Origin: a virus
Reading direction: 5' to 3' (one strand)
IMG/VR virus record: IMGVR_UViG_3300045988_166584
DNA length: 61,427 bases
Numbering within the stretch: the first letter of the stretch is position 1; each line of letters opens with the position of its first letter. Shown one piece after another: positions 3,336 to 46,243 of the stretch. The position numbers were made by a program, and so were the translations under genes. The notes under the pieces are model-generated. The model had not been told where the DNA came from, did no database searches, and saw only the letters and a list, made by a program, of their open reading frames with translations.

Positions 3336-5963
3336 TTATGGTAGATAATAATCCCCGGTTTCTATTCTTTCTCCCTCCACATAACCAAGTTCAAGCAAAG
3401 TATTCCACATTTTAGCAGCCCAAATATAGGATAATAAATTATTCTGATGAATTTTATCACTGCCGGGCCAAAAGAGTGTTTCATAATCCGATGCTGTATA
3501 TTGACCTTCTATAATACCCAACGCTTGTCCATCATAAACTGCTTGTCCTTGAGTATAAGCGCGAAGATTGATATATCTTGCACCAAAACATTTATTAGCT
3601 TGATAGACTAGCTGATTAGTTGTAAGGGACAAGGGCGTAGAACAGACAATATACTTCTCAGAAAAATTATTAGCCGATGAACTGACCATATTAGCCCAAT
3701 CTTCTTCTGACTCGTATCCATAATTCTGACCTGTAAACCATATATGAGGATAATCCTTGTCATCATACAATGCAGCGTCAAAAAACACATTGCCTACACC
3801 TATTTTTGTTTCTCTTCCTTCTTCCAACCTTGTAAATTCATACAATAAAGAGGTGGCTAAGCTGTCAAAATAAATTTTTCCTTGTTTTATAGGCAGCAGC
3901 TCACTGCACTTGAATAATTCAGAGTAATGATATTGTCCCTTACTATCTATATAGCCATCTCTTGTTGCATTAGTTTTAATGTCCACCGTATCTTCGTTTA
4001 TTGTAATATGTGGTTCTCCAACATTTGGATTATTTATTGTGAATGTATATTTTGTCGCAGTAGATGGAATTGAATGGGTGCCAGTCTCGGATAGACTTTT
4101 TATAAATGTGCCATTCTCTGTATAAAATGCTATACCAACAGCGTCAATGGCTTGCTTTGCCAAATTTCCTCTTATACCATTAATAACTACCTGTACGTTT
4201 TGCCCATCTGATATAGCAACATAAGGTGTGTCGTGATAAATTCCGTCACTTTTTATCCATGCGCTTTCTAAAGCACAAATAACAGGGCCTTTGGCTGGTA
4301 TAGTAAACTCACCTTTAACCCTTATACCTATACCTCCTGCCCTTGTTAAATTGCCAATAGTTTTTTCGCCACCTTGGCATCTTTGAATTAATTCATATCC
4401 TGTAAATTTAAATATATTATTAAGTTGTTTTATTATCAATGCACTATTATTACCACACAGTGAATCTCCTACTATAACAACTCTTTTAGGCTTAGGCTTT
4501 TCAGAAGAAATTCCTGCTTTATAAACAATGATACTTGGTTCTCCAACAGCAATAAATTCATTATCTGAAGTAGATTTTGTCTGTAATATAAGTTCTAATT
4601 TTGTATATTGAGAATAATCTGATGTGTTGATAGTTACTGGTCCTGTTCCGTTTGTTAATTCATAAATTACATTATCATCTCCATACAGTATAAAAGCTGA
4701 CAACCTATTTGTATTATTAGACAGACTACCATTATTAGATAGTCCTTTAATAGTAACTGTATCATAATTAGATATATCTAATTTATCTGTGCTCCATAAT
4801 TTTTGTATTGAATTATAACCTTGAGTTGTTCCGTTCGGTTGATTTGCCCCCGTAAGCCATCTTCTTTTATTCCAAGTAAAAGAATTAAATATATCTATAT
4901 TATCTGCTCCAGAAATTAAATAATTAATTTTTTCTATTTCTGTGGTATTAAATTCAACAGAATCAGATAAATTATTAAAATCTTCTCTTGAAGCTACAGA
5001 ACTATCCATTATGACTATAATACTTGAATCATTTTTTGGAATAAATTCATCATCTGAAGTTGATTCACATTGTAAAATTAATTCCAGCTTGGTATATTGG
5101 GAATAGTCTGATGTATTAATAATAGTTTCACCACTTGCATCTCTAATTCCTTTAACAAGGGTATTATCACCATAAATACATATACCATTTAATGCAGATG
5201 CACTTGTGCTTATGGATGAGCCATCTAATAATCCATCGCAAATAATACTATCATATTCTGAAATGTCAATCCTTGCATACCAAATTTTTTGAACAGCATT
5301 ATATCCCAACTCCCCGCCATTAGGTTGATTTGTTCCTGTTACCCATCTTTTTTTATTCCAAGTAAGGACACCTATGACATCTTTCTCCAACCCTTCTATT
5401 TTATTTATAGAAGATTGAATAGATATAAGTTCTTCAGGCTTAACTACTTTAGCTTTGCTGTTGGCAATAACAGAAGGAATTATAGAATTATCTTGTTTTG
5501 CTTGAATAATGATGTTAATATTGCTTCTGTCGGAATATTTATCCATATTAATAACCGCAGAACTACCCCTCAAATATTCTATTTGTTCGCTACCACTATA
5601 AATACTAATTGAAGGGAAAATATCAGAAACGTCTACTTTTTCTGATAGTCCTGACATTTTTAGAGTATCGTAATATCCTACATCTGTCAATTTGGTATGC
5701 TTATAATTTTGTTTTTGAATACTATTACCCGCAGACGAATTTGTTTCCCAATCCCATGTGCCATCTATCCATACTGTATTTTCTGTTATAAGATCTTTAT
5801 CTATAGAGCCTTCTATTTGTGTCTTTAAATAAATTTCCTCATTTTCTAACTCTGAAAGTTCCGTAGTCAGACTTTTTCGTGTATTGGGGTTGACCACCGC
5901 ATCATAGATGGTAGCCGGGAATATGGTTTGTCCACCCTTGGTCAGTTTATGCATTTTTACCAT
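3336..5963 (-). CDS. Tail fibre / receptor-binding protein B with a GDSL/SGNH esterase domain
   Basis: 875-aa ORF sharing the N-terminus MVKMHKLTKGGQTI. It has two tandem ~160-aa repeats (WNKKRWVTGTNQPNG... and WNKRRWLTGANQPNG...), the GDS block VVIVGDSLCGN and a C-terminal GSDKIHQ (D-x-x-H). Confidence 0.7.
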   Translation of the reverse strand: MVKMHKLTKGGQTIFPATIYDAVVNPNTRKSLTTELSELENEEIYLKTQIEGSIDKDLITENTVWIDGTWDWETNSSAGNSIQKQNYKHTKLTDVGYYDTLKMSGLSEKVDVSDIFPSISIYSGSEQIEYLRGSSAVINMDKYSDRSNINIIIQAKQDNSIIPSVIANSKAKVVKPEELISIQSSINKIEGLEKDVIGVLTWNKKRWVTGTNQPNGGELGYNAVQKIWYARIDISEYDSIICDGLLDGSSISTSASALNGICIYGDNTLVKGIRDASGETIINTSDYSQYTKLELILQCESTSDDEFIPKNDSSIIVIMDSSVASREDFNNLSDSVEFNTTEIEKINYLISGADNIDIFNSFTWNKRRWLTGANQPNGTTQGYNSIQKLWSTDKLDISNYDTVTIKGLSNNGSLSNNTNRLSAFILYGDDNVIYELTNGTGPVTINTSDYSQYTKLELILQTKSTSDNEFIAVGEPSIIVYKAGISSEKPKPKRVVIVGDSLCGNNSALIIKQLNNIFKFTGYELIQRCQGGEKTIGNLTRAGGIGIRVKGEFTIPAKGPVICALESAWIKSDGIYHDTPYVAISDGQNVQVVINGIRGNLAKQAIDAVGIAFYTENGTFIKSLSETGTHSIPSTATKYTFTINNPNVGEPHITINEDTVDIKTNATRDGYIDSKGQYHYSELFKCSELLPIKQGKIYFDSLATSLLYEFTRLEEGRETKIGVGNVFFDAALYDDKDYPHIWFTGQNYGYESEEDWANMVSSSANNFSEKYIVCSTPLSLTTNQLVYQANKCFGARYINLRAYTQGQAVYDGQALGIIEGQYTASDYETLFWPGSDKIHQNNLLSYIWAAKMWNTLLELGYVEGERIETGDYYLP

Positions 5964-6847: not shown

Positions 6848-9157
6848 TCACTTCTTTACTTTTAAAGTCCCGTTTGTCACGACTCCTTCTACTGTCTCAT
6901 ATTCCACATATACCTGACCTGACGAAACATCATCTTTCCCCGGCCAATTACTGCAATCAATATTGGCCACATGCTTATACACATTCACCCCGTTGTATAT
7001 CGGTTTCATCCCGACCAGCAGCATTTCGCCGTTGGAACCATAAAAGGATACGTTATTGGGATTAAGAATGATATCCGTATTTTCTACATAATTCTGTATT
7101 CTGATACGTTCCGGATATACAGTCGTTTCTAGTATCAATTGGTCCCCTGCATATTTCCGCAAAATCAAATCACCATATTCCCATCCGTCCGATGATGTGT
7201 CGAACCTTAATATCAAGGTGGCATGTCCTTCAGTCGTGTACATTTCAAGAGTATTTTTATCCGGATCAATGACAATGCGTTTCCCGTCAACAGATGTTTC
7301 TACTTTTCCGCGGAAAAATCCGCCCAAGGCTTCAACCACACCGCGGAACTTACCACCCAAGGCATAAATATAGCCACGCAGGAACGTATCGCCACCATGA
7401 GTGGCAACGAAGTTCGCCATATTCGCCCATTCTTCATCGGTGGGTTGATAATTCGGATCATTACGAAACCTCATCACGGTCAATATAGCCTGTTGTAACG
7501 TGCCACCTGCCCAAAATGCCACATCATCATCGTCATTGTATATGCCGCTAACTCCGGCTGTGACCTTCTGCATCTTGCCATCCTTGTAGTTGCCTAACTG
7601 GATCATATTGGCCAATATCAAACCGCCAAGGATGTCCACAGAACCATCCTTAATCGCGCTGGCGATATAATTGATTGACTGAAAACCGGCCATGGACTTG
7701 TCGTTATCAAGAATTGAAGGCTTCCAATCGGTGGCGATGGTCCCACGCTCTAGCTGAAGATCACAAACGGTTGCGGTACCACTGATAAGAAATATACCAC
7801 TGCCATTGAAGGTGATCTTATGGGTATATCTCTGATAAGAGGATGTGAGAGGTTGAGAAACACTGAAAGAACCGCACGAAACAGACACAGACGTACCCTT
7901 TGCTTTATAACTGATAACATAACTTTCTCCTTTAATCAATGATACGGACTGGGACAAACTACCGATTGCAGCAGAGTACCCGGAGCCGGCATCACTGTCC
8001 GCAGATACGGTAGCCACTCCCGTCCAATATTCCAGTTGCTTGCTAAAAAGTTCGGTATCCGCCGATAGCTCGGTAGCGGCAGACAGGTCCTCTGTCTCAT
8101 AATCTCCCGTAAACCCGGAATTACGCAACAGATTGACACTTCCGACAGCCGCATTGTCTATCGCATCCTTGGCCTCTTGGGCAAGATCAGCCGCCGCCTG
8201 TATCTCATCCGGCAGACCTTCCATATTACGCCATCCGGTGGAACCCTGCTCGATATGGAACATACCCTTGATATCAACACCGCCTTTTTGTGTATAACGG
8301 ATGTAAGTGCTCTCATCCTTGGCACCGATATAGGCATCACCATACACATTGATATAGGCGTGTCCGGTGGACTTGTCAAAGCCCAGCCCGATGACTTCTT
8401 TCCCGGCAAGGGCGAAAGAATTGATGCCTTGGTAAAAAATAATGGAAGGCGAAGTTTCATTAACAGAAGAAAGGATTATAGCTGCCTGACGAGTGATGTC
8501 CGTCAAGTGTCCCAAGCCAATAATATCATCACCGGCAACCGGGATATCACTGTCCTTGTCGGCATTGGTTTTGCTCAAGTCAATATAGTCAGATCCTACA
8601 CCTGTCACCTCACGCCAGTAGTAGCGGTTGGATACATTGTGAGATGTTCCTTCTTTAATGTTAAATTCTTGGGCTAATGCTAATGTACCGACTGTAAATT
8701 CGTTATTGATTGTAATACCATCGACTTCCGATAAGAAGAAACAGCGGTAGCTCTCATCAAGTTCCTCCACACGGACACACTTCATTCCGGCTGGAGATAA
8801 GATCTGCTCACCACCAACATGCGTCTTCTTTTTCACTTCAAGTTCATCAAAGACAGCCTTAATCTTCACATAAAGCCGGTCAACAACGGCTTGAGAGGTA
8901 CCATCTTCCAGTACAGTAATTCCACTACCGTTCTTACCAATCAAAAGACCTTTCAAAAAAGTGATCAGCTCATTAGCGATATCTTCTTTATCTTTACGAA
9001 GGAAGTATTTGGTGAGCTTTTCTAAATCGGAATTATCCATGTTTTCTAGAATCCCGATAAATATGCGCCCAATTCTTTCAGCTGTATTCTCTCCTTCTGC
9101 AGATGCGTTTCTTACTTGAAGAGCCAGTTTCTTTAATATGTCAACCGAATCGCTCAT
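6848..9157 (-). CDS. Large tail / host-specificity protein with a carbohydrate-binding-like module
   Basis: 769-aa ORF. The segment NLLRNSGFTGDYE...LQLERGTIATDWKPS resembles the jelly-roll sugar-binding modules common in phage fibre proteins. Position is consistent with a distal tail role. Confidence 0.5.
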   Translation of the reverse strand: MSDSVDILKKLALQVRNASAEGENTAERIGRIFIGILENMDNSDLEKLTKYFLRKDKEDIANELITFLKGLLIGKNGSGITVLEDGTSQAVVDRLYVKIKAVFDELEVKKKTHVGGEQILSPAGMKCVRVEELDESYRCFFLSEVDGITINNEFTVGTLALAQEFNIKEGTSHNVSNRYYWREVTGVGSDYIDLSKTNADKDSDIPVAGDDIIGLGHLTDITRQAAIILSSVNETSPSIIFYQGINSFALAGKEVIGLGFDKSTGHAYINVYGDAYIGAKDESTYIRYTQKGGVDIKGMFHIEQGSTGWRNMEGLPDEIQAAADLAQEAKDAIDNAAVGSVNLLRNSGFTGDYETEDLSAATELSADTELFSKQLEYWTGVATVSADSDAGSGYSAAIGSLSQSVSLIKGESYVISYKAKGTSVSVSCGSFSVSQPLTSSYQRYTHKITFNGSGIFLISGTATVCDLQLERGTIATDWKPSILDNDKSMAGFQSINYIASAIKDGSVDILGGLILANMIQLGNYKDGKMQKVTAGVSGIYNDDDDVAFWAGGTLQQAILTVMRFRNDPNYQPTDEEWANMANFVATHGGDTFLRGYIYALGGKFRGVVEALGGFFRGKVETSVDGKRIVIDPDKNTLEMYTTEGHATLILRFDTSSDGWEYGDLILRKYAGDQLILETTVYPERIRIQNYVENTDIILNPNNVSFYGSNGEMLLVGMKPIYNGVNVYKHVANIDCSNWPGKDDVSSGQVYVEYETVEGVVTNGTLKVKK

Positions 9158-33607: not shown

Positions 33608-33925
33608 TTAATTATTACGATTTCTTTCCGCTGCGACTTCACTCATACACATCTTGCACCAGGAGGTGAGACATCGGTATTCCTTATCCCCACATCTGAC
33701 AGTCCTGTTATAGAACCGGTGGAGCGGAAGGGAACGTCCGCAATGCGGACAAACCTTTCTTCCGGCTTCCGTACCGGCAACCGTCTTGGCTTTACGGTGT
33801 ACAAGCGTACATCCCCTGCATTCATCCAGTCTGCCTTTGTATTTCCGGCATTTGTGCAGGGAGATGCGCCCGCATGGAGCGAATTTCTCGCAGTCGAATC
33901 TGGGTTCTGTATGATAGATGTTCAT
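33608..33925 (-). CDS. Cys-rich zinc-ribbon-like protein
   Basis: 105 aa with multiple CxxC-type pairs (CRGC, CPHC, CKMC). Its stop is coupled to the upstream gene. Confidence 0.5.
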   Translation of the reverse strand: MNIYHTEPRFDCEKFAPCGRISLHKCRKYKGRLDECRGCTLVHRKAKTVAGTEAGRKVCPHCGRSLPLHRFYNRTVRCGDKEYRCLTSWCKMCMSEVAAERNRNN

Positions 33926-36438
33926 ACGGCACTGTCCATCAAATCAAACAATGTGGGTGCGCTAACTTCCATCTCCGCCTCATACAGATATGAAAGACTG
34001 TCTTTCCAATAGTCATAATTTAGTTCAGTAGATAATCCCTTACGTTTCAGTCTGATGGCACAATAAGGTACTGTGCCGATACCTCCGAAGGGGTCAAACA
34101 CCAACTCACCCTTGTTTGAATACCGTTCAATCAGTCTTTCAACGATATCGAGCTGTAAAGGGCAGATGTGGTTCTGCCGTTTCTTCTGTGACTGCTTGGT
34201 ATTGAGCGTGCGCATACGGGTGACATCATCCCATATCCAATCTTTCTTGCTTACAGGGTCAACGGCCATAAATGTTTTAGGCAGCTTTCCGTATATTTCC
34301 AATTCTTCAGCGAATGATACATGTTCCTCGTAGTTATATATATGTTCACGTTCGTAGTTCCTGAACAGATGGCGTATCTTATCTATTCCGGCTCCTTTCA
34401 TGTCCTCATAGCTCAATAGAGAGTTACCAGAAGATTTCCAACTTGCATGGGCATCTATCTGCCAACGGGCAAGCGAGTATTCACTCTTATTCTTTGTCAC
34501 CGGCAAATCAGCATAGGCTCGTGAGGTATCAGAAGGCAACTTTCGGAAGAGAAGAACATATTCCGGGCAACCGATACCCATCTTTGAACCGTCCTTGCAC
34601 ATCTCTGTATATCCAAGCCGATAAGTCTGGTTGTTCTCCCTCACCACATCCGTATCCACTGTAATACGCCCCATGTAGCGGAACCCGTGCTTCAGATAAT
34701 GGAACACTGTCATTTCGCTGAACGGGTCGATGGTGGGCATACCGTCACCCGTAACGTTGCCGAACAGTACACGGTCCTTTACATGGATGCAGGCCAACCG
34801 GCCGGGCTTTAAAATACGCATAAGCTCCGGGGTGAGATAGTCCATCTGCTCAAAGAACTTGCCGTTGTCTTCATTATGCCCGAAATCATTATAGGTAGGC
34901 GTATATTCGTAGTGGTTGGAGAACGGAATACTGGTTACAATCAGGTCTACTGAATTATCTTCCATCTTCTGACATTCAAGTACATTGTCATTATTGATAG
35001 CTTTCCACAGTTTGCCGGACTTCTCTTCCCGACTGGCGAACATCCAGCGCATCATCTTTTCCTCTGCCTGCAAGCCGAACAAACCGTTCTCACGAACTAT
35101 ATCGGTCATTCTGGCTACCATCTGGCGGTGTTGCGCCCACTTCTGCATGAAGCTCTTGTATATCTCTCCCTCACTTTCCGCATAGACCAGATAGAGGTCA
35201 ACCGGATGCTGCTGCATGAAACGGTAGATACGGGCTATTGCCTGAAACTTGTCGTTGAAACGGTAGTCAATGAACATGATTGCCTTGTGGCAGTGGTACT
35301 GGAAGTTCAGACCCTCACCAAGCATTTCAGGTTTGGCGGCCAGATATTTCAGACGGCCATCCTTGAAGTCCGCTATCACCCTGTCGGCTTCCTCATCATC
35401 CTGCGAGCCGTACACAGCCTTACATCCGGGAATTGCCTTGCAGAGTGCCTCACGTTCAGCCTCCAAGTCGTGCCATAAAAGGAAATGATCATCCTTGTTT
35501 TCGGAACGGTTGATTATTTCCACCACACGGGCTATTTTCTCAGTCATGTTGTCCCGGCGTTCCTTTGCAGCATCAGCCAGACCGAGAGCAGCCTCACGGA
35601 ACATTTTCACCTGCCCGTCACGGTCGGTGCCGGCAGTGGAGTTGTCCACACTCACAACTTCTTCATGTACCCGTAACTCCGGTAACTCATATCCTGTATC
35701 GGGATAACCGAGATCAGATGGCTTTGTAAGAAATAATGCCCATGTACTGACCCATAACCAGAATTCCTTTTCCTTGTGGGGATAGAGGGTAAGATTGTTC
35801 GCCTTCGTGCTGTCACGCTGGAAGAACCTTGTAAGTGCCTGCCCGGTATCCATCACTCCAAGGTAGCCGGCATAGTGTATCAGCTCCTTGTATCTGTTGG
35901 GTGACGGTGTGGCAGTGGCAACAAACCTGTACGGAACTTCTGCAAACATAGGAAGAAACTCCTGATAGGTCTTGGTTCCGAATCCACGTAACACGCTCGC
36001 TTCATCCAATGAGGTAACGGTAAAGTAAGAAGGTTCTATTCTTACTCCGTCCTCGCCGTCACGGACACGCTCATAGTTTGTCACCATGATATTGGTCGGA
36101 CATTGCTTCACCTCCTGCATAGTACGTACATAGGTCACTTTCATGCCCAGATGCTTTTCGGCCTGTGTCAGGAACTCCACTACTACACGCTTGGGGCAAA
36201 CTATCAACCCTTTGCCTCCTGTGCGGTTCAGGATTACCCGCAGTATCTCCAACTGGGTTACGGTCTTCTGCATACCGAAGCTGGAGAATATCGCCCTGCA
36301 ACCGCCGGAAACAGCCCAACGTACTGTATCTTTCACATGGGGATATAAGTACGGGGTAAGTTCATCAGCCTTAACTTCAAATCCTGTCTGATGGCTGATT
36401 GCCATCTTGTCTTTCAAAAATTCTATATAATCTTTCAT
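33922..36438 (-). CDS. SF2 helicase-like N-terminal domain fused to a beta-class N6/N4 DNA methyltransferase
   Basis: 838 aa. Helicase motifs are GMQKT and TSLDEAS. The methyltransferase motif IV-like DLIVTSIPFSNHYEY precedes the motif I-like VFDPFGGIGTVPYCA. Confidence 0.7.
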   Translation of the reverse strand: MKDYIEFLKDKMAISHQTGFEVKADELTPYLYPHVKDTVRWAVSGGCRAIFSSFGMQKTVTQLEILRVILNRTGGKGLIVCPKRVVVEFLTQAEKHLGMKVTYVRTMQEVKQCPTNIMVTNYERVRDGEDGVRIEPSYFTVTSLDEASVLRGFGTKTYQEFLPMFAEVPYRFVATATPSPNRYKELIHYAGYLGVMDTGQALTRFFQRDSTKANNLTLYPHKEKEFWLWVSTWALFLTKPSDLGYPDTGYELPELRVHEEVVSVDNSTAGTDRDGQVKMFREAALGLADAAKERRDNMTEKIARVVEIINRSENKDDHFLLWHDLEAEREALCKAIPGCKAVYGSQDDEEADRVIADFKDGRLKYLAAKPEMLGEGLNFQYHCHKAIMFIDYRFNDKFQAIARIYRFMQQHPVDLYLVYAESEGEIYKSFMQKWAQHRQMVARMTDIVRENGLFGLQAEEKMMRWMFASREEKSGKLWKAINNDNVLECQKMEDNSVDLIVTSIPFSNHYEYTPTYNDFGHNEDNGKFFEQMDYLTPELMRILKPGRLACIHVKDRVLFGNVTGDGMPTIDPFSEMTVFHYLKHGFRYMGRITVDTDVVRENNQTYRLGYTEMCKDGSKMGIGCPEYVLLFRKLPSDTSRAYADLPVTKNKSEYSLARWQIDAHASWKSSGNSLLSYEDMKGAGIDKIRHLFRNYEREHIYNYEEHVSFAEELEIYGKLPKTFMAVDPVSKKDWIWDDVTRMRTLNTKQSQKKRQNHICPLQLDIVERLIERYSNKGELVFDPFGGIGTVPYCAIRLKRKGLSTELNYDYWKDSLSYLYEAEMEVSAPTLFDLMDSAV

Positions 36439-42812: not shown

Positions 42813-43630
42813 TATTCCAGTCCGAAAATCTTCTTGTCCGTGATAGATTCTCTATTAGCTTCCAAAAACTCTATGAAATGTTCTACGTGTGCCGTGAGCA
42901 GTTTCACTGTCTGTTCGTGATTGTAAGTATAATATTCCGGATATTGCGTACCACTGATAAGCGGTGTGCGGCTGGTACCGCCTTTCAGCGCATAAGCCGT
43001 AAACTCAAATGCCTTTATGTTTTCCATCTGACCGGAAGCAATTAGGCAATAAGGGTAGACATGGCGCTGCCACCCGTGGGCGTATTTGCCGAACTCGTAT
43101 TTAGATGTGGATTTTATGTCATAAACAACATCCTTTCGGAGTTCGTCGATAAATCCGTATAACTCCACATTTCCGTACTGGGTAGGAAGAATGGCGGATA
43201 CATAGACCTGACTTAATGAGCCTTTGAAATACTCTGCCTGTTCTATACACCATTGTCTGTCGAAAAGGAAATGCCGTGCAGGTGCGATATCCGTTGCGGG
43301 GAAAGCTACTTGTATAGTATTGGTTTCCTTATCGCCAATGATGGAGTAGGGGGAACGCTCTGTCGGCACGTGATTTTCGCAATGGACATAGCAGTCAATG
43401 ATAGCATTGAAGGCTGTTCCCTTGTCGGCTGCTTCACTCTCAAACGGTACACGGTTGATAGCATCCAGAAGGTCTTGTTTCAGGCTCTCTTCGATTTCTT
43501 CCGGAGAGCGTTTATACTCTCCGGTTTCATTATCAATGTTCCAGAAGTTTTCCACTTCTTCATCAGCTCTCAGATACTTGTCGAATTTGTCAAGTAATGA
43601 GGGATAGATTCTATAACTAGGCTGCTTCAT
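42812..43630 (-). CDS. PD-(D/E)XK (RecB/Cas4-like) exonuclease
   Basis: 272 aa with GFIDEL...VVYDIKST (D...D-x-K), next to an AAA_24-type ATPase. Confidence 0.6.
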   Translation of the reverse strand: MKQPSYRIYPSLLDKFDKYLRADEEVENFWNIDNETGEYKRSPEEIEESLKQDLLDAINRVPFESEAADKGTAFNAIIDCYVHCENHVPTERSPYSIIGDKETNTIQVAFPATDIAPARHFLFDRQWCIEQAEYFKGSLSQVYVSAILPTQYGNVELYGFIDELRKDVVYDIKSTSKYEFGKYAHGWQRHVYPYCLIASGQMENIKAFEFTAYALKGGTSRTPLISGTQYPEYYTYNHEQTVKLLTAHVEHFIEFLEANRESITDKKIFGLE

Positions 43631-45584
43631 ATATTTTTTTTACTTTGTCGAATTTCAACCCTAATTCCTTGCATCTTTTATTCAGTAGCATACCTGCTTG
43701 TAATTTGCTGTCGAAGATATGCTGCAGGCTCTCCAGTGATTGTTTCACTTCGTTGGCCGTGTCCGCATCCGCTACCATGGCTATCTGTTCCTTGATAACT
43801 TCCATAAGACCTTCATATTCGGAGGACAGTTCTGCCTGTTTTTCCTGATAGGTCTGATAAGTGTTTACAATCTTTGTCATAAAGTCGTTCGGTCCGGTGA
43901 TTGTACCTTCTGCATTAATGATAACTGGTATCTTTATGCGTGCCGGAAGATTGCAGGTATTCTTACCGTAGAATTTCTCGCACGGATCAAAAGAGATGGT
44001 TCTGTCCTTACCTATGGCTTCCATATAGCCTACAAGATCAAGCTCTTTAATCAGGTCACCAGCAGAAGAACCTCCGATTTCAGGGCGTATCTGTTTGTCC
44101 TCTCCGTTCTTTTCCTCGCGTTCATGGGCTACGAATATTACTGATTTACCCATTAGTGTGACTTGATTTACGAAGTTGATGAACATGTTCTTTCGTACTC
44201 CGTATCCTTGCAGGGACAGTGTGCCGTCCGCTTTCTTCATTTTGGGATTGTTCTTCATTATATATTTATCCATGAAGGATAACATTTTTCCTGCCGTATC
44301 AATAACGATGGTCTTGTATTCGGCAATTTCTCCGCTCGTAAGAACTTCATCCACCTCTTCCCATTTGGAAATTTGCACGGTGTCTACACGGTGGGCTGCA
44401 TTCACACGGTGAACGCCACCGTCAAAATCAAGCAATAACGGTTTGGGTGAACTTAAAGCAAGTGTAGTGTTGTGAGTTACTATATAATCGTCAGTGACAT
44501 ACAATTCATCCTCATTAGATACCTTAATGCAGACACATTCACAATCTTCTACACGGGTCACATCTACTATATATCTAGATATAGTAGTTTTACTCCATTC
44601 AGAAGCTTTTCTTTCAAGACTGAAAGGGCATTCTTTGATTTTCACGCTAACACGGTATTCGTCCCCCTTATCTTCTCTTTCGTATACATGTACATTAGCT
44701 ATACCACCTAAAGAGTTAACAAGCTCCACCACATCATAAGCAAGATTCTTACTTGCAGTAGAAAAACAAACTCTATTTTTTATTGCACATCCATCTGTGT
44801 CCATAAGGCCGCGAAGCAAAGATATACGTTGTTGATGGCTTCCTAATTTGTAACAATCAGGGATAAATTTCTCTGTAGAATGGACGTTCAATCCTAACCG
44901 CTTTATTCTCTGAATATATCCTTCCCCATTGCCTGAAAGAATTATGCCGTATTGAGGGCATTGCGGTGCATCATTCTTACTCAAGGAATAGCCGTTCGGA
45001 AGCAGTCGTTCTACGTTGCTGGCTATTTGTGAATCTACATCAGGATTTGAGAATATTGCTACATTCCCCGTCAGAGAACCATCGCCGATTAAAACCCCAA
45101 GAATATACGGGTCAACATCATAACTCTTTTCAGTATATTCCATAGCATCTACTACCGGAATCTCAAAGCGTGGGATAGGTTTTCTTGTAGAAAGCTGTCT
45201 TGATGGAGACAAGGAGCAAGAGATACCCTTCGACATCATCTCTTTAAGGGTCATGTTTCTAAATCCTGCTTTACGGCTATTGCCAGTACTTGAACGAACA
45301 TTCCATATATGTTCTTCATCGCAATAAGTTATGGCTCCGTCATTTGTCATGACTCTGTACACAGGTCTTACTCCTTGAGGATAAACACCCAATACTTTCT
45401 GTTCTTTACCGTCACATCCCATCAGGGTGTCTCCTACAGATATATCGGATAACTTCTTATATCCTTCCGGTGTCAGAACGCTGCAATACAAAGGTTGAGC
45501 CTTTCCCATACCTGGTTGTCCGTAGATTAATGCCGACAGGGCATTCTTAACTGTCAGTTCGTTAGGTTTTTTGATAAGTCCCAT
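43617..45584 (-). CDS. AAA_24 / Sak4-like ATPase interrupted by an intein in the Walker A loop
   Basis: The exteins read LIYGQPGMGK | TTLALSSPKPLLLDFDGG, which rejoin to GQPGMGKTT. The preferred start is ATG 45584 rather than the track's TTG at 45590. Confidence 0.75.
   Translation of the reverse strand: MGLIKKPNELTVKNALSALIYGQPGMGKAQPLYCSVLTPEGYKKLSDISVGDTLMGCDGKEQKVLGVYPQGVRPVYRVMTNDGAITYCDEEHIWNVRSSTGNSRKAGFRNMTLKEMMSKGISCSLSPSRQLSTRKPIPRFEIPVVDAMEYTEKSYDVDPYILGVLIGDGSLTGNVAIFSNPDVDSQIASNVERLLPNGYSLSKNDAPQCPQYGIILSGNGEGYIQRIKRLGLNVHSTEKFIPDCYKLGSHQQRISLLRGLMDTDGCAIKNRVCFSTASKNLAYDVVELVNSLGGIANVHVYEREDKGDEYRVSVKIKECPFSLERKASEWSKTTISRYIVDVTRVEDCECVCIKVSNEDELYVTDDYIVTHNTTLALSSPKPLLLDFDGGVHRVNAAHRVDTVQISKWEEVDEVLTSGEIAEYKTIVIDTAGKMLSFMDKYIMKNNPKMKKADGTLSLQGYGVRKNMFINFVNQVTLMGKSVIFVAHEREEKNGEDKQIRPEIGGSSAGDLIKELDLVGYMEAIGKDRTISFDPCEKFYGKNTCNLPARIKIPVIINAEGTITGPNDFMTKIVNTYQTYQEKQAELSSEYEGLMEVIKEQIAMVADADTANEVKQSLESLQHIFDSKLQAGMLLNKRCKELGLKFDKVKKIYEAA
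44469..45500 (-). mobile_element. Intein with a LAGLIDADG homing-endonuclease domain
   Basis: The N-terminal block is (AQPLY)CSVLTPEGYKKLSDISVGD. The LAGLIDADG blocks are LGVLIGDGSL and LRGLMDTDGC. The C-terminal block is YIVTHN followed by a +1 Thr. Confidence 0.8.
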
Positions 45585-45617
45585 AATCAATAATTTTTAG
45601 TGGTTAATAAATGAGTT

Positions 45618-45658
45618 AAAAAAAATAGTTCCCGGATAGTCGGCCAGGACACACCGGG
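45618..45658 (-). terminator. Rho-independent-type terminator ending the tRNA-like transcription unit
   Basis: On the minus strand, a CCCGG...CCGGG stem with an inner GTC/GAC helix is followed by AACTA and T8. Confidence 0.55.
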
Positions 45659-45826
45659 ATAAATAAGGATATAGAATATAACATATAAAGAGGGCTCTCA
45701 CCTCACGCTGTCCTTTCCAGCGGCTTTGGGTTAAATTATTATCTAACAAATTGCTCTCTGCTTCACTGCCTTGAAGTCTCTAACATGGCTACGTTTAAAG
45801 GGTGTACGGCTCCCTCTCTTTGGGTG
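45659..45826 (-). ncRNA. Candidate structured RNA downstream of the tRNA-like gene
   Basis: There is no ORF. Structure includes a long-range pairing AGAGGG (about 45812) with CCCTCT (about 45692), plus hairpins CTTCA-N6-TGAAG and CGCTG-GAAAGGA-CAGCG. Confidence 0.4.
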
Positions 45827-45936
45827 TGGGTAATACAGGATTCGAACCTGTATCTGTATTCCTCCTGAAAACAATCACAAACCGTCTGAACGTAAAGAAA
45901 AAAGTGAATACCGCTTTTCCATTAAGCTAATTACCC
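45827..45936 (-). tRNA. tRNA-like gene with 46 nt in place of the 7-nt anticodon loop
   Basis: Hand-folded on the minus strand: acceptor GGGTAAT/ATTACCC, U8 A9, D arm GCTT-AATGGAA-AAGC, anticodon stem GTATT/AATAC, variable loop AGAT, T arm ACAGG-TTCGAAT-CCTGT, discriminator A. There is no encoded CCA and no clean anticodon hairpin. Confidence 0.6.
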
Positions 45937-45943
45937 GTGTGGC

Positions 45944-46243
45944 TTATGCCACTTTCTTTTTTAATTTTCTAGGCTTCCTTGGCATTTTGACCTGTGCATA
46001 ACGCAGGACATCACTGGCATTGCAGAACCATTTCCCGTTTTGTGCGCATGTAGGCTTGTCGGAACGTATTTTGTTTTCTTCGATCAGTCTGATAAGCCTT
46101 CCTATGCCTCCAACTATTTTGGCCGCTTCTCTTTTACCGAATGTATGAGTGTCCATGATGGCTAGGATGTCTGCTAGCCGTGCTTCTGCCGTTCCATCAA
46201 ATAAGATGGATGTCCGTAGTTGGTTGTTAACTGTATAGTTCAT
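45944..46243 (-). CDS. Hypothetical DNA-binding-like protein
   Basis: 99 aa with a basic C-terminal tail (PRKPRKLKKKVA). Its stop lies 8 nt upstream of the tRNA-like gene. Confidence 0.5.
   Translation of the reverse strand: MNYTVNNQLRTSILFDGTAEARLADILAIMDTHTFGKREAAKIVGGIGRLIRLIEENKIRSDKPTCAQNGKWFCNASDVLRYAQVKMPRKPRKLKKKVA

Follow-up and report, generated by a model that had tools for sequence, protein, structure and literature searches.

A 110-nt element on the minus strand of a 61,427-nt stretch of viral DNA (IMG/VR record IMGVR_UViG_3300045988_166584; "the window" below means this whole stretch) has the sequence and predicted fold of a transfer RNA (tRNA) gene in which the anticodon loop has given way to a long insert. 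Its product is incapable of reading codons. We favour, tentatively, a reading in which the gene is functional and encodes a non-decoding tRNA-like RNA that presents, on its tRNA body, a single-stranded loop as effector. The element belongs to a family of 204 copies (32 distinct sequences, 106–121 nt long, sorted into types A to G) carried by Bacteroides phage contigs and a B. clarus prophage. Phage tRNA genes are usually explained by codon usage or by the replacement of tRNAs cut by host defences. In the present case selection maintains the tRNA shape in a widespread group of Bacteroides phages of the human gut, with the anticodon discarded, and the RNA must therefore serve some purpose other than decoding.

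A complete tRNA body with an insert in place of the anticodon loop

Read on the minus strand from 45936 to 45827, the element is GGGTAAT-TA-GCTT-AATGGAA-AAGC-G-GTATT-[46 nt]-AATAC-AGAT-ACAGG-TTCGAAT-CCTGT-ATTACCC-A, letter for letter the sequence that a preliminary description of this DNA had folded by hand. That description had claimed perfect helices and a canonical T loop, and indeed all four helices are fully paired and both the D and T loops are canonical. A refinement concerns the anticodon stem: the C that follows GTATT pairs with the G that precedes AATAC and, as these are the first and last nucleotides of the 46-nt insert, the stem comprises 6 bp (GTATTC/GAATAC) and the loop 44 nt. 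The body is of class I, and the conserved tRNA core is complete, with U8-A14, R15-Y48, G18 and G19, the 13-22-46 contact, T54-A58 and C56 all in place (Table 1). The Rfam tRNA model (RF00005) matches the element over model positions 1–71 with a score of 53.9 bits (gathering score, 29 bits; E = 8e-09 for the 61-kb window), skipping 45 nt within the anticodon loop. This match is far beyond chance and is the only one to any Rfam model in the window. The earlier view of the element as a tRNA-like body in which a foreign insert replaces the anticodon loop holds, and is strengthened by the comparative data that follow.

A family of insert-bearing tRNA-like genes

Exact-word scans recovered near-identical type-A copies from 77 IMG/VR contigs, in five variants that differ at three positions, and a degenerate 5′ signature, a flanking motif and the genes nearby led on to divergent members. 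Of 31 pattern matches in species-representative genomes, 29 are due to chance; the remaining two place the family in Bacteroides clarus YIT 12056 and in one assembly of an uncultured bacterium. Common to every member are a complete tRNA body, in which A73 is followed by C but not by an encoded CCA, and an insert of 34–47 nt at the same site, borne on an anticodon stem of 6–9 bp (6 bp in type A and 7–9 bp in types B–G). The gene lies directly after a gp35-family gene and before the recombination/replication module in types A–F, while the gene downstream of type G encodes a RecT-like recombinase, as judged from its sequence.

The window element fits the family signature (GGN5-TA-GCTY...RAGC-G-GT) and has the long stem, unpaired loop, A73-C and post-gp35 position that go with it, but lacks the loop 3′ core UUUGUCAUGGUAUYNUUUWAAWGGUUU with its three GGU repeats. 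On sequence criteria, type A is a divergent branch of the family.

Selection acts on the L-shaped fold

Because MAFFT misaligned type A, we used a covariance-model alignment and a structure-aware parse in its place. The covariance model (R1) was built from types B–F with type A left out, and 138 matches were aligned to it. Standard pairs fill 96.8% of the paired cells of this alignment, against 32–49% when the partners are slid by 1–3 columns; changes occur on both sides in 22 of the 24 pairs, and the observed values were reached by none of 500 column shuffles, figures that apply to an alignment made to fit the structure, with paralogous tRNA-like elements among its members.

An independent structure-aware parse of the 32 distinct family sequences gave covariation in all four stems, with compensatory changes between types at 11 of 25 base-pair positions. 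In the acceptor stem, pair 3-70 is found as G-C, G-U and A-U, pair 4-69 as U-A, C-G, A-U and once U-G, and pair 5-68 as A-U and U-A. The D-stem pair 13-22 is U-A in type A and C-G in types B–G, and positions 3–6 of the anticodon stem all switch, in compensatory fashion, between type A and the other types. The T stem varies at 49-65 (A-U, G-C), 50-64 (C-G, U-A) and 51-63 (A-U, G-C). The tertiary contacts follow suit: type A has A15-U48 and U13-A22-A46, and 26 of the 27 distinct B–G sequences have G15-C48 and C13-G22-G46, while U8, A14, G18-G19, G26 and the T loop are kept across the family. As both the stems and the tertiary contacts covary, selection must act on the L-shaped fold, beyond the maintenance of a few hairpins. 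The accumulation of unpaired changes in the arms of relatives, which had been put forward as the mark of a decaying gene, is the opposite of what is seen.

A separate peculiarity of the fold is a bulged nucleotide in the T stem of all B–G members, between pairs 52-62 and 53-61 (GCGG-C-G / CCCGC); the T stem of type A is regular. The bulge is almost always a pyrimidine (C or U) and is A in one type-G variant (examples are L080 2201-2314 and L294 2997-3109, the L numbers here and below denoting loci of relatives).

The insert forms an open loop whose 3′ core is conserved in types B–G

RNAalifold leaves the loop unpaired. Set against shuffled sequences, the type-A insert region folded alone has z = +1.29 and the loop alone z = +0.59, and 15 of 16 distinct loops (about 50% U and 2–14% C) are less self-structured than their shuffles (z +0.4 to +2.0). 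The last 27 nt of the B–G loop (UUUGUCAUGGUAUUAUUUAAAGGUUU and close variants) are 78–100% identical between types even where the flanks are unalignable. Identities among types B–G fall to 16–22% in the flanks and are 79–97% in the body, and for the pair B and G the values are 16–22% over 150-nt flanks, 80% in the body and 89% in the loop core. By this measure the loop 3′ core of types B–G is conserved at least as well as the body that carries it. The 5′ part of the loop is more variable than the 3′ core, and type G (L312, L313 and other loci) carries one to three GGTATT (GGUAUU) repeats there, with the 3′ core fixed.

The B–G loops contain three WWGGUWWY (UGGU-type) motifs. Wherever all three are kept, 13–14 nt separate the last two; the distance between the first two is 13 nt in types B, D, E and F and 19–20 nt in C and most G. 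Equal spacing of the motifs arises in 0.02% of shuffles, a frequency that refers to a pattern noticed post hoc. The type-A loop is without the three repeats; it holds GGUUUG and CAGGAG and shares with B–G only the short blocks GGUUUGUGA and UUGUUUU.AGG.

Several more specific roles for the loop were considered and rejected. An antisense target within the window is not indicated, the best BLAST-short match of the type-A insert scoring 23.8 bits (shuffles: median 21.8, 95th percentile 25.7), and the B–G loop core finds only chance 12–13-mers in related loci. The 13-mer ATGGTATTATTTA, considered as a mark of repressor start codons, does not occur in the window, nor does the loop resemble any repressor start region. 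A small open reading frame (ORF) starting at the AUG of the B–G loop was discounted by inspection, as it stops after four codons in E and F and its frame differs between B and D. The CAGGAGG of type A is a poor candidate for a Shine-Dalgarno mimic, since 15 of 78 copies have a mutation in it and the other types lack it. Inspection of the insert gave no match to a Bacteroides-type promoter (TTTG ... TAnnTTTG), and the loop core did not occur outside the scaffold of this family in the sequences scanned.

Other tRNA-shaped genes occupy the same locus in related phages

The same intergenic region of related phages holds further tRNA-shaped elements without a normal anticodon loop (Table 1). They include a 68-nt element (3–4-bp stem, 4-nt loop), a 71-nt element in which a tetraloop closes a 6-bp stem, 81-nt elements with loops of 15–17 nt, a class-II Leu-like body with a long insert, and 131–133-nt "double" elements in which a single acceptor stem goes with two D and two T arms. 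A 66-nt element on a 160-kb contig (L240) has a GCAA tetraloop in place of the anticodon loop. One relative (L184) carries genuine tRNA-Arg(CCU) and tRNA(CAU) genes in this region, with A73-C74 and no encoded CCA. Because the genuine tRNAs share both their place and their A73-C context with the non-decoders, we conclude that the locus is a phage tRNA island, several members of which have been converted into non-decoders.

A recurrent box, CTGTGAAGAT (CTGTGAAGTT in L082), which may belong to a promoter or mark a processing site, is found 8–23 nt upstream of several of the tRNA-like elements (L207 ~7500 and ~7768; L080 ~2470; L082 ~855). The window element is not preceded by it.

A tRNA body as a possible scaffold for an effector loop

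The shape of the element, with its intact acceptor/T domain and elbow, and its position suggest how such an RNA might be made and might act. It would be part of an early polycistronic transcript, from which host RNase P would cut at G1 and RNase Z after A73, the latter site being proposed because CCA is not encoded; CCA would then be added, as for the genuine L184 tRNAs with the same A73-C74 context. The tRNA body would confer precise ends and metabolic stability, and the single-stranded loop would be the working part, most likely as a protein-binding platform and less likely as an RNA-binding one. A candidate protein partner would recognise the repeated GGU motifs. Excision would also sever the early mRNA between its regulatory and its recombination/replication genes. 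We advance with more reserve a broader proposal, in which temperate Bacteroides phages would encode a new class of effector RNAs: tRNA-shaped arrays with their anticodon loops deleted, reduced to tetraloops or exchanged for conserved single-stranded ones, for which host tRNA maturation serves as the expression scaffold. The insert-bearing member would then be a sponge or guide whose UGGU-type motifs are recognised by a factor of the host or phage, and that affects the early lysis-lysogeny/replication programme or counters host defence.

A number of observations weigh against an effector loop. The type-A block from gp35 to the two-hairpin motif described below is so uniform (nucleotide diversity, pi, ~0.004–0.008) that it has no power to show constraint: among 68 aligned type-A copies only two loop sites vary, and these two polymorphic sites hit CAGGAGG in 15 of 78 copies. 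Moreover, the type-A loop is only 48–59% identical to the B–G core, near the level of the unalignable flanks. Given this low variation and this divergence, selection on the insert in type A is argued by analogy with the sister types. A search of phage sequences for a binding partner gave no complementary target above chance. Finally, the relatives with tetraloops or minimal loops show that the tRNA body alone is worth keeping, and these loop-poor forms favour a function centred on the body (processing or decoy), with the loop possibly secondary.

Body-centred and DNA-level alternatives

Among the alternatives, the one that survives best, although we consider it unlikely as a full account, is a pure processing signal ("tRNA punctuation", of the kind that mascRNA provides on MALAT1). 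Cleavage by RNase P and RNase Z would separate the gp32–gp35 mRNA from the recombination/replication mRNA and so set mRNA ends and half-lives, the excised RNA being functionless and the insert a tolerated filler. The position of the element is well suited to this. As had been reported, it starts 8 nt after the stop of ORF 45944-46243 (TAA, 7 nt GCCACAC, then G1), a small hairpin lies just 5′ of the presumed cut site, and an untranslated stretch of ~350 nt holds the element, the two-hairpin motif and a terminator ahead of gp36. The hairpin, which the scan detected as a 5-bp stem and reported on the plus strand, has counterparts just 5′ of the element in other family types, and could cap the 3′ end of the upstream mRNA after RNase P cleavage. 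The selection of bodies with tetraloops or minimal loops and the lack of demonstrable constraint on the type-A insert also agree with a processing signal. A mere filler, however, would not be as conserved as the body across unalignable flanks, as the B–G loop 3′ core is, nor does this explanation account for an insert that is held at 34–47 nt and consistently avoids self-pairing. Furthermore, the acceptor/T domain and the elbow suffice for RNase P and RNase Z, which leaves the lengthened and covarying anticodon stem unexplained. The role of processing signal, suggested in the preliminary description, is thus viable and processing is very likely involved, but the conservation of the B–G loop falls outside it.

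We regard it as less probable again that the RNA is a decoy or sponge, engaging a host factor through its tRNA body, removal of the anticodon keeping the decoy out of translation. Candidate factors are a tRNA-targeting defence or toxin enzyme directed at the elbow or the acceptor end, an enzyme that modifies tRNA or adds CCA, and an anticodon-independent synthetase. Phage tRNAs can counter tRNA-targeting defences. Selection here covers the full L-shape including its tertiary pairs, and relatives carry whole arrays of anticodon-less bodies (class-I, class-II Leu-like and "double"), both as expected of a decoy. G3:U70, the alanine identity pair, is found in types B and F and in one type-G variant; it is not conserved across types, however, being G-C in A, C, D and most G and A-U in E. 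A decoy would also leave the conserved loop sequence unexplained, and neighbour and window protein scans found no defence-related or tRNA-related gene linked to the element. Because it lacks an anticodon loop, the element would not mimic the substrate of an anticodon nuclease, so this version of the decoy idea, the example given earlier, has become less likely, whereas the idea of a mimic or decoy in general keeps its standing.

It is improbable that the insert works at the level of DNA, as direct repeats (TTGGTAAT / ATGGTATT / AAGGTTTC, 13 bp apart) bound by a phage protein, for instance as origin iterons or as an operator beside the replication module that has become lodged in an old tRNA gene. 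Such a role would suit the three regular direct repeats, the AT-rich segment with its flanking inverted repeat, the place directly upstream of the recombination/replication genes, and the genes just upstream, which encode a LuxR-type helix-turn-helix (HTH) DNA-binding regulator and gp35 (function unassigned). It would not explain why four tRNA stems and their tertiary pairs covary around the insert, and the strand-specific avoidance of C and of self-pairing is that expected of an RNA; type A, moreover, is without the three repeats.

Excision of the insert does not restore a decoding tRNA

A true tRNA with a short, unconventional intron, which splicing would turn into a decoding molecule, is very improbable. 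The tRNA body is perfect, and genuine tRNAs occur at the same locus in L184. ARAGORN in its default mode reported neither a tRNA nor a transfer-messenger RNA (tmRNA) in the window; run with introns allowed, as had been suggested, it returned a "tRNA-Pro(AGG)" with a 37-nt intron at position 31/32 and the loop UCAGGAG. We do not consider this model credible, since it needs a non-standard intron position and places C at position 33, and the type-A polymorphisms fall within its anticodon loop, where they would change the anticodon. In an exhaustive test, every single contiguous excision was examined for a 7-nt loop with U33 and a purine at 37. With the standard 5-bp stem no type yields a canonical loop, and type A yields none in any stem register; types C–F do so only with a stem of 7–8 bp, and the identity of the tRNA would then change between types. 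The earlier statement that the insert contains no convincing 7-nt anticodon loop is borne out by this test.

Group I introns need roughly 200 nt or more to hold the P1–P9 catalytic core. The insert, at 44–46 nt and with no match to an Rfam intron, is too short for one, in agreement with what had been said of it. Fold predictions give no bulge-helix-bulge motif and no helix within the insert, and neither the GenBank annotation nor Pfam and PHROG scans of about 25 window proteins revealed a splicing endonuclease, RNA ligase or reverse transcriptase. The short-intron tRNA, which headed the roles first listed for the element, is therefore disfavoured: excision restores no canonical loop, the stem is extended, and the phage proteins examined yielded neither an endonuclease nor a ligase.

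A decaying tRNA pseudogene or functionless remnant of an integration site can be dismissed in spite of the destroyed anticodon loop and the missing GenBank annotation, since the 204 copies have perfectly paired stems, compensatory changes at 11 of 25 pair positions and tertiary covariation, the insert keeps its site and its length between lineages whose flanks cannot be aligned, and the element sits inside an operon, ~9 kb from the nearest integrase gene in the record of the related phage BS-TP3. The distance from integrases and the location in an operon likewise lend no support to the earlier suggestion of an attachment target for satellites.

Comparison with known tRNA-like RNAs

The family is undescribed in the literature searched, and Rfam 15 has no separate family that covers these elements. 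It is the family that was previously unannotated; non-decoding tRNA-like RNAs as a kind are already known. By analogy, in its proposed function the element most resembles the engineered tRNA scaffold, mascRNA and the vtRNAs of murine gammaherpesvirus 68 (MHV68). In the engineered scaffold for recombinant RNA, the design of Ponchon and Dardel, a cargo RNA reportedly replaces the anticodon loop. Shared with the phage elements are a lengthened anticodon stem that bears the cargo and an intact acceptor, D and T body, which in the scaffold serves RNase P, 3′ processing and nuclease protection. The scaffold is, however, man-made and its cargo a folded aptamer or hairpin, whereas the phage family is natural, is known from sequence and presents an unstructured loop of ~44 nt. 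Use of the engineered scaffold is reported in PMC4402540. The mascRNA/MALAT1 and MEN-beta tRNA-like elements are cut by RNase P and RNase Z and define the 3′ end of the RNA upstream. Here the common ground is a tRNA shape without a working anticodon within a longer transcript, cleavage being presumed in the case of the phage element; unlike the phage element with its large loop, they are eukaryotic and nuclear, have a small anticodon arm and show no sequence relationship to it. The MHV68 vtRNAs (TMERs) are processed by the host, CCA-tailed and non-decoding, and form a handle for effector RNAs. They too are virus-encoded tRNA-like RNAs not used in decoding, but their precursor-microRNA hairpins are appended 3′ and they have an RNA polymerase III promoter, whereas the phage insert sits in the anticodon arm.

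Three further classes come to mind. Bacterial noncoding Y RNAs are reported to be widespread and to mimic tRNAs (PMC4201824). YrlA and the phage elements have in common a non-decoding mimic of the tRNA acceptor and D/T elbow, of bacterial or phage origin, joined to a second functional module. The tRNA-like module of YrlA is topologically permuted, with its ends in the Ro-binding stem, and YrlA is linked to the rsr (Ro60) gene, whereas the phage element has the normal tRNA topology with its ends forming the acceptor stem; Rfam gave no Y RNA match, and no Ro60-like protein was seen among the neighbours scanned. The tRNA-like domain of tmRNA also joins an acceptor and T arm to foreign sequence that replaces the anticodon arm, but the phage element has a complete D arm and neither a tag reading frame nor a resume codon, and type A has G3-C70. 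ARAGORN and Rfam found no tmRNA, and inspection found no ORF conserved across types. Intron-containing tRNA genes (bacterial group I, archaeal bulge-helix-bulge) resemble the element in that extra sequence interrupts the anticodon arm; they differ from it in the respects set out above and in its stem of 6–9 bp, which covaries. The element belongs to none of these three classes: for tmRNAs, Y RNAs and intron-containing tRNAs alike, defining features were looked for and were missing.

Should the tRNA body indeed be a scaffold for an effector loop, the family would be the natural counterpart of an engineering trick that was invented independently. It would offer a ready-made chassis for small-RNA expression in Bacteroides and add an RNA player to the early regulatory region of temperate phages. 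Standard tRNA finders miss such genes or would call them intron-containing tRNAs, and they go unmentioned in GenBank, IMG/VR and the paper on BS-TP3.

Genomic setting

For 701 nt around the element the window matches Bacteroides phage BS-TP3 (PQ571276.1), a temperate phage of B. salyersiae, with 100% identity, and over 24 kb it is a mosaic relative (63% covered at 99% identity). The element carries no annotation in GenBank record PQ571276.1, and the word "tRNA" is absent from the main text of the paper describing BS-TP3. The element is part of the early rightward operon. Genes for small regulators, among them the LuxR-type HTH protein and gp35, precede it on the same strand, and a CI-like repressor (phrog_4) is encoded on the opposite strand ~3.5 kb upstream. 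The genes downstream encode an AAA_24 ATPase with an intein, NinB, a helicase and a VRR-NUC nuclease.

Table 1. Parts of the window element, neighbouring features, and tRNA-shaped elements without a normal anticodon loop in related loci.
Feature	Coordinates	Strand	Remarks
Whole tRNA-like element, family type A, 110 nt	45827..45936	minus	RF00005; covariance model R1 47 bits, E 4e-07
Acceptor stem, 5′ strand GGGTAAT	45930..45936	minus	pairs with 45828-45834; 7/7 Watson-Crick pairs
U8-A9 ahead of D arm	45929-45928	minus	
D arm GCTT-AATGGAA-AAGC	45913..45927	minus	A14, A15, G18, G19, A21 present
G26	45912	minus	
Extended anticodon stem, 5′ strand GTATTC	45906..45911	minus	6 bp with 45856-45861
44-nt insert/loop ACUUUUUUCUUUACGUUCAGACGGUUUGUGAUUGUUUUCAGGAG	45862..45905	minus	48% U, 14% C; predicted mostly unpaired
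Extended anticodon stem, 3′ strand GAATAC	45856..45861	minus	
Variable loop AGAT (A46, U48)	45852..45855	minus	U48-A15 Levitt pair; A46 fits U13-A22-A46 triple
T arm ACAGG-TTCGAAT-CCTGT	45835..45851	minus	canonical T loop
Acceptor 3′ strand ATTACCC and discriminator A73	45827..45834	minus	followed by CAC; CCA not encoded
Hairpin GTGGC-ATAA-GCCAC, 5 bp	45939..45952	minus	gp35 stop codon in loop; ends 2 nt before element
gp35-family gene, 99 aa, phrog_18744	45944..46243	minus	function unassigned; directly upstream of element
Two-hairpin motif AACCCAAAGC-CGCUG-GAAAGGA-CAGCG-U-GAGG-UGAGAGC-CCUC	45690..45732	minus	conserved
Terminator-like hairpin CCCGG...CCGGG with T8 run	45618..45658	minus	33 nt before gp36 ATG (45584)
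tRNA-shaped elements without normal anticodon loop	L080 2496-2563, 2658-2788		
tRNA-shaped elements without normal anticodon loop	L207 6918-7000, ~7519-7655, 7792-7924		
tRNA-shaped element without normal anticodon loop	L082 871-941		
tRNA-shaped elements without normal anticodon loop	L184 4005-4085, 7035-7141		
tRNA-shaped element without normal anticodon loop	L240 6772-6837		

The two-hairpin motif downstream of the element has no Rfam match. It recurs beside tRNA or tRNA-like genes in L184 (~4128-4170, ~6962-7005 and ~7168-7205), L080 (~2340-2376) and L207 (7311-7345), and relatives show compensatory variants of it (GUUG/CAAC, GGUG/CACC and GGGG/CCCU). As a terminator stands between this motif and the recombination/replication genes, directly in front of the latter, we speculate that the motif may be a nut/put-like antitermination signal. 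The terminator-like hairpin itself is kept in L080, and its place ahead of gp36 means that the recombination/replication module would need read-through or antitermination.

The gp36 gene (43617-45590, minus strand, ATG at 45584) is annotated in BS-TP3 as "terminase large subunit"; here its product is read as an AAA_24 (Sak4-like) ATPase with an intein, for which the evidence is a LAGLIDADG_3 match at 1.3e-09 and a weak Hint match. Its homologs in sister phages are intein-free and 312–348 aa long, and among type-A phages the gene has a pi of 0.17, far above that of the block upstream. Elsewhere in the window, 33922-36438 (minus strand) encodes an 838-aa fusion of an SNF2 helicase and an N6_N4 DNA methylase, where BS-TP3 has an integrase and a methyltransferase. 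The ends of the BS-TP3 record carry SusC/SusD-like genes, which suggests that they are host flanks.

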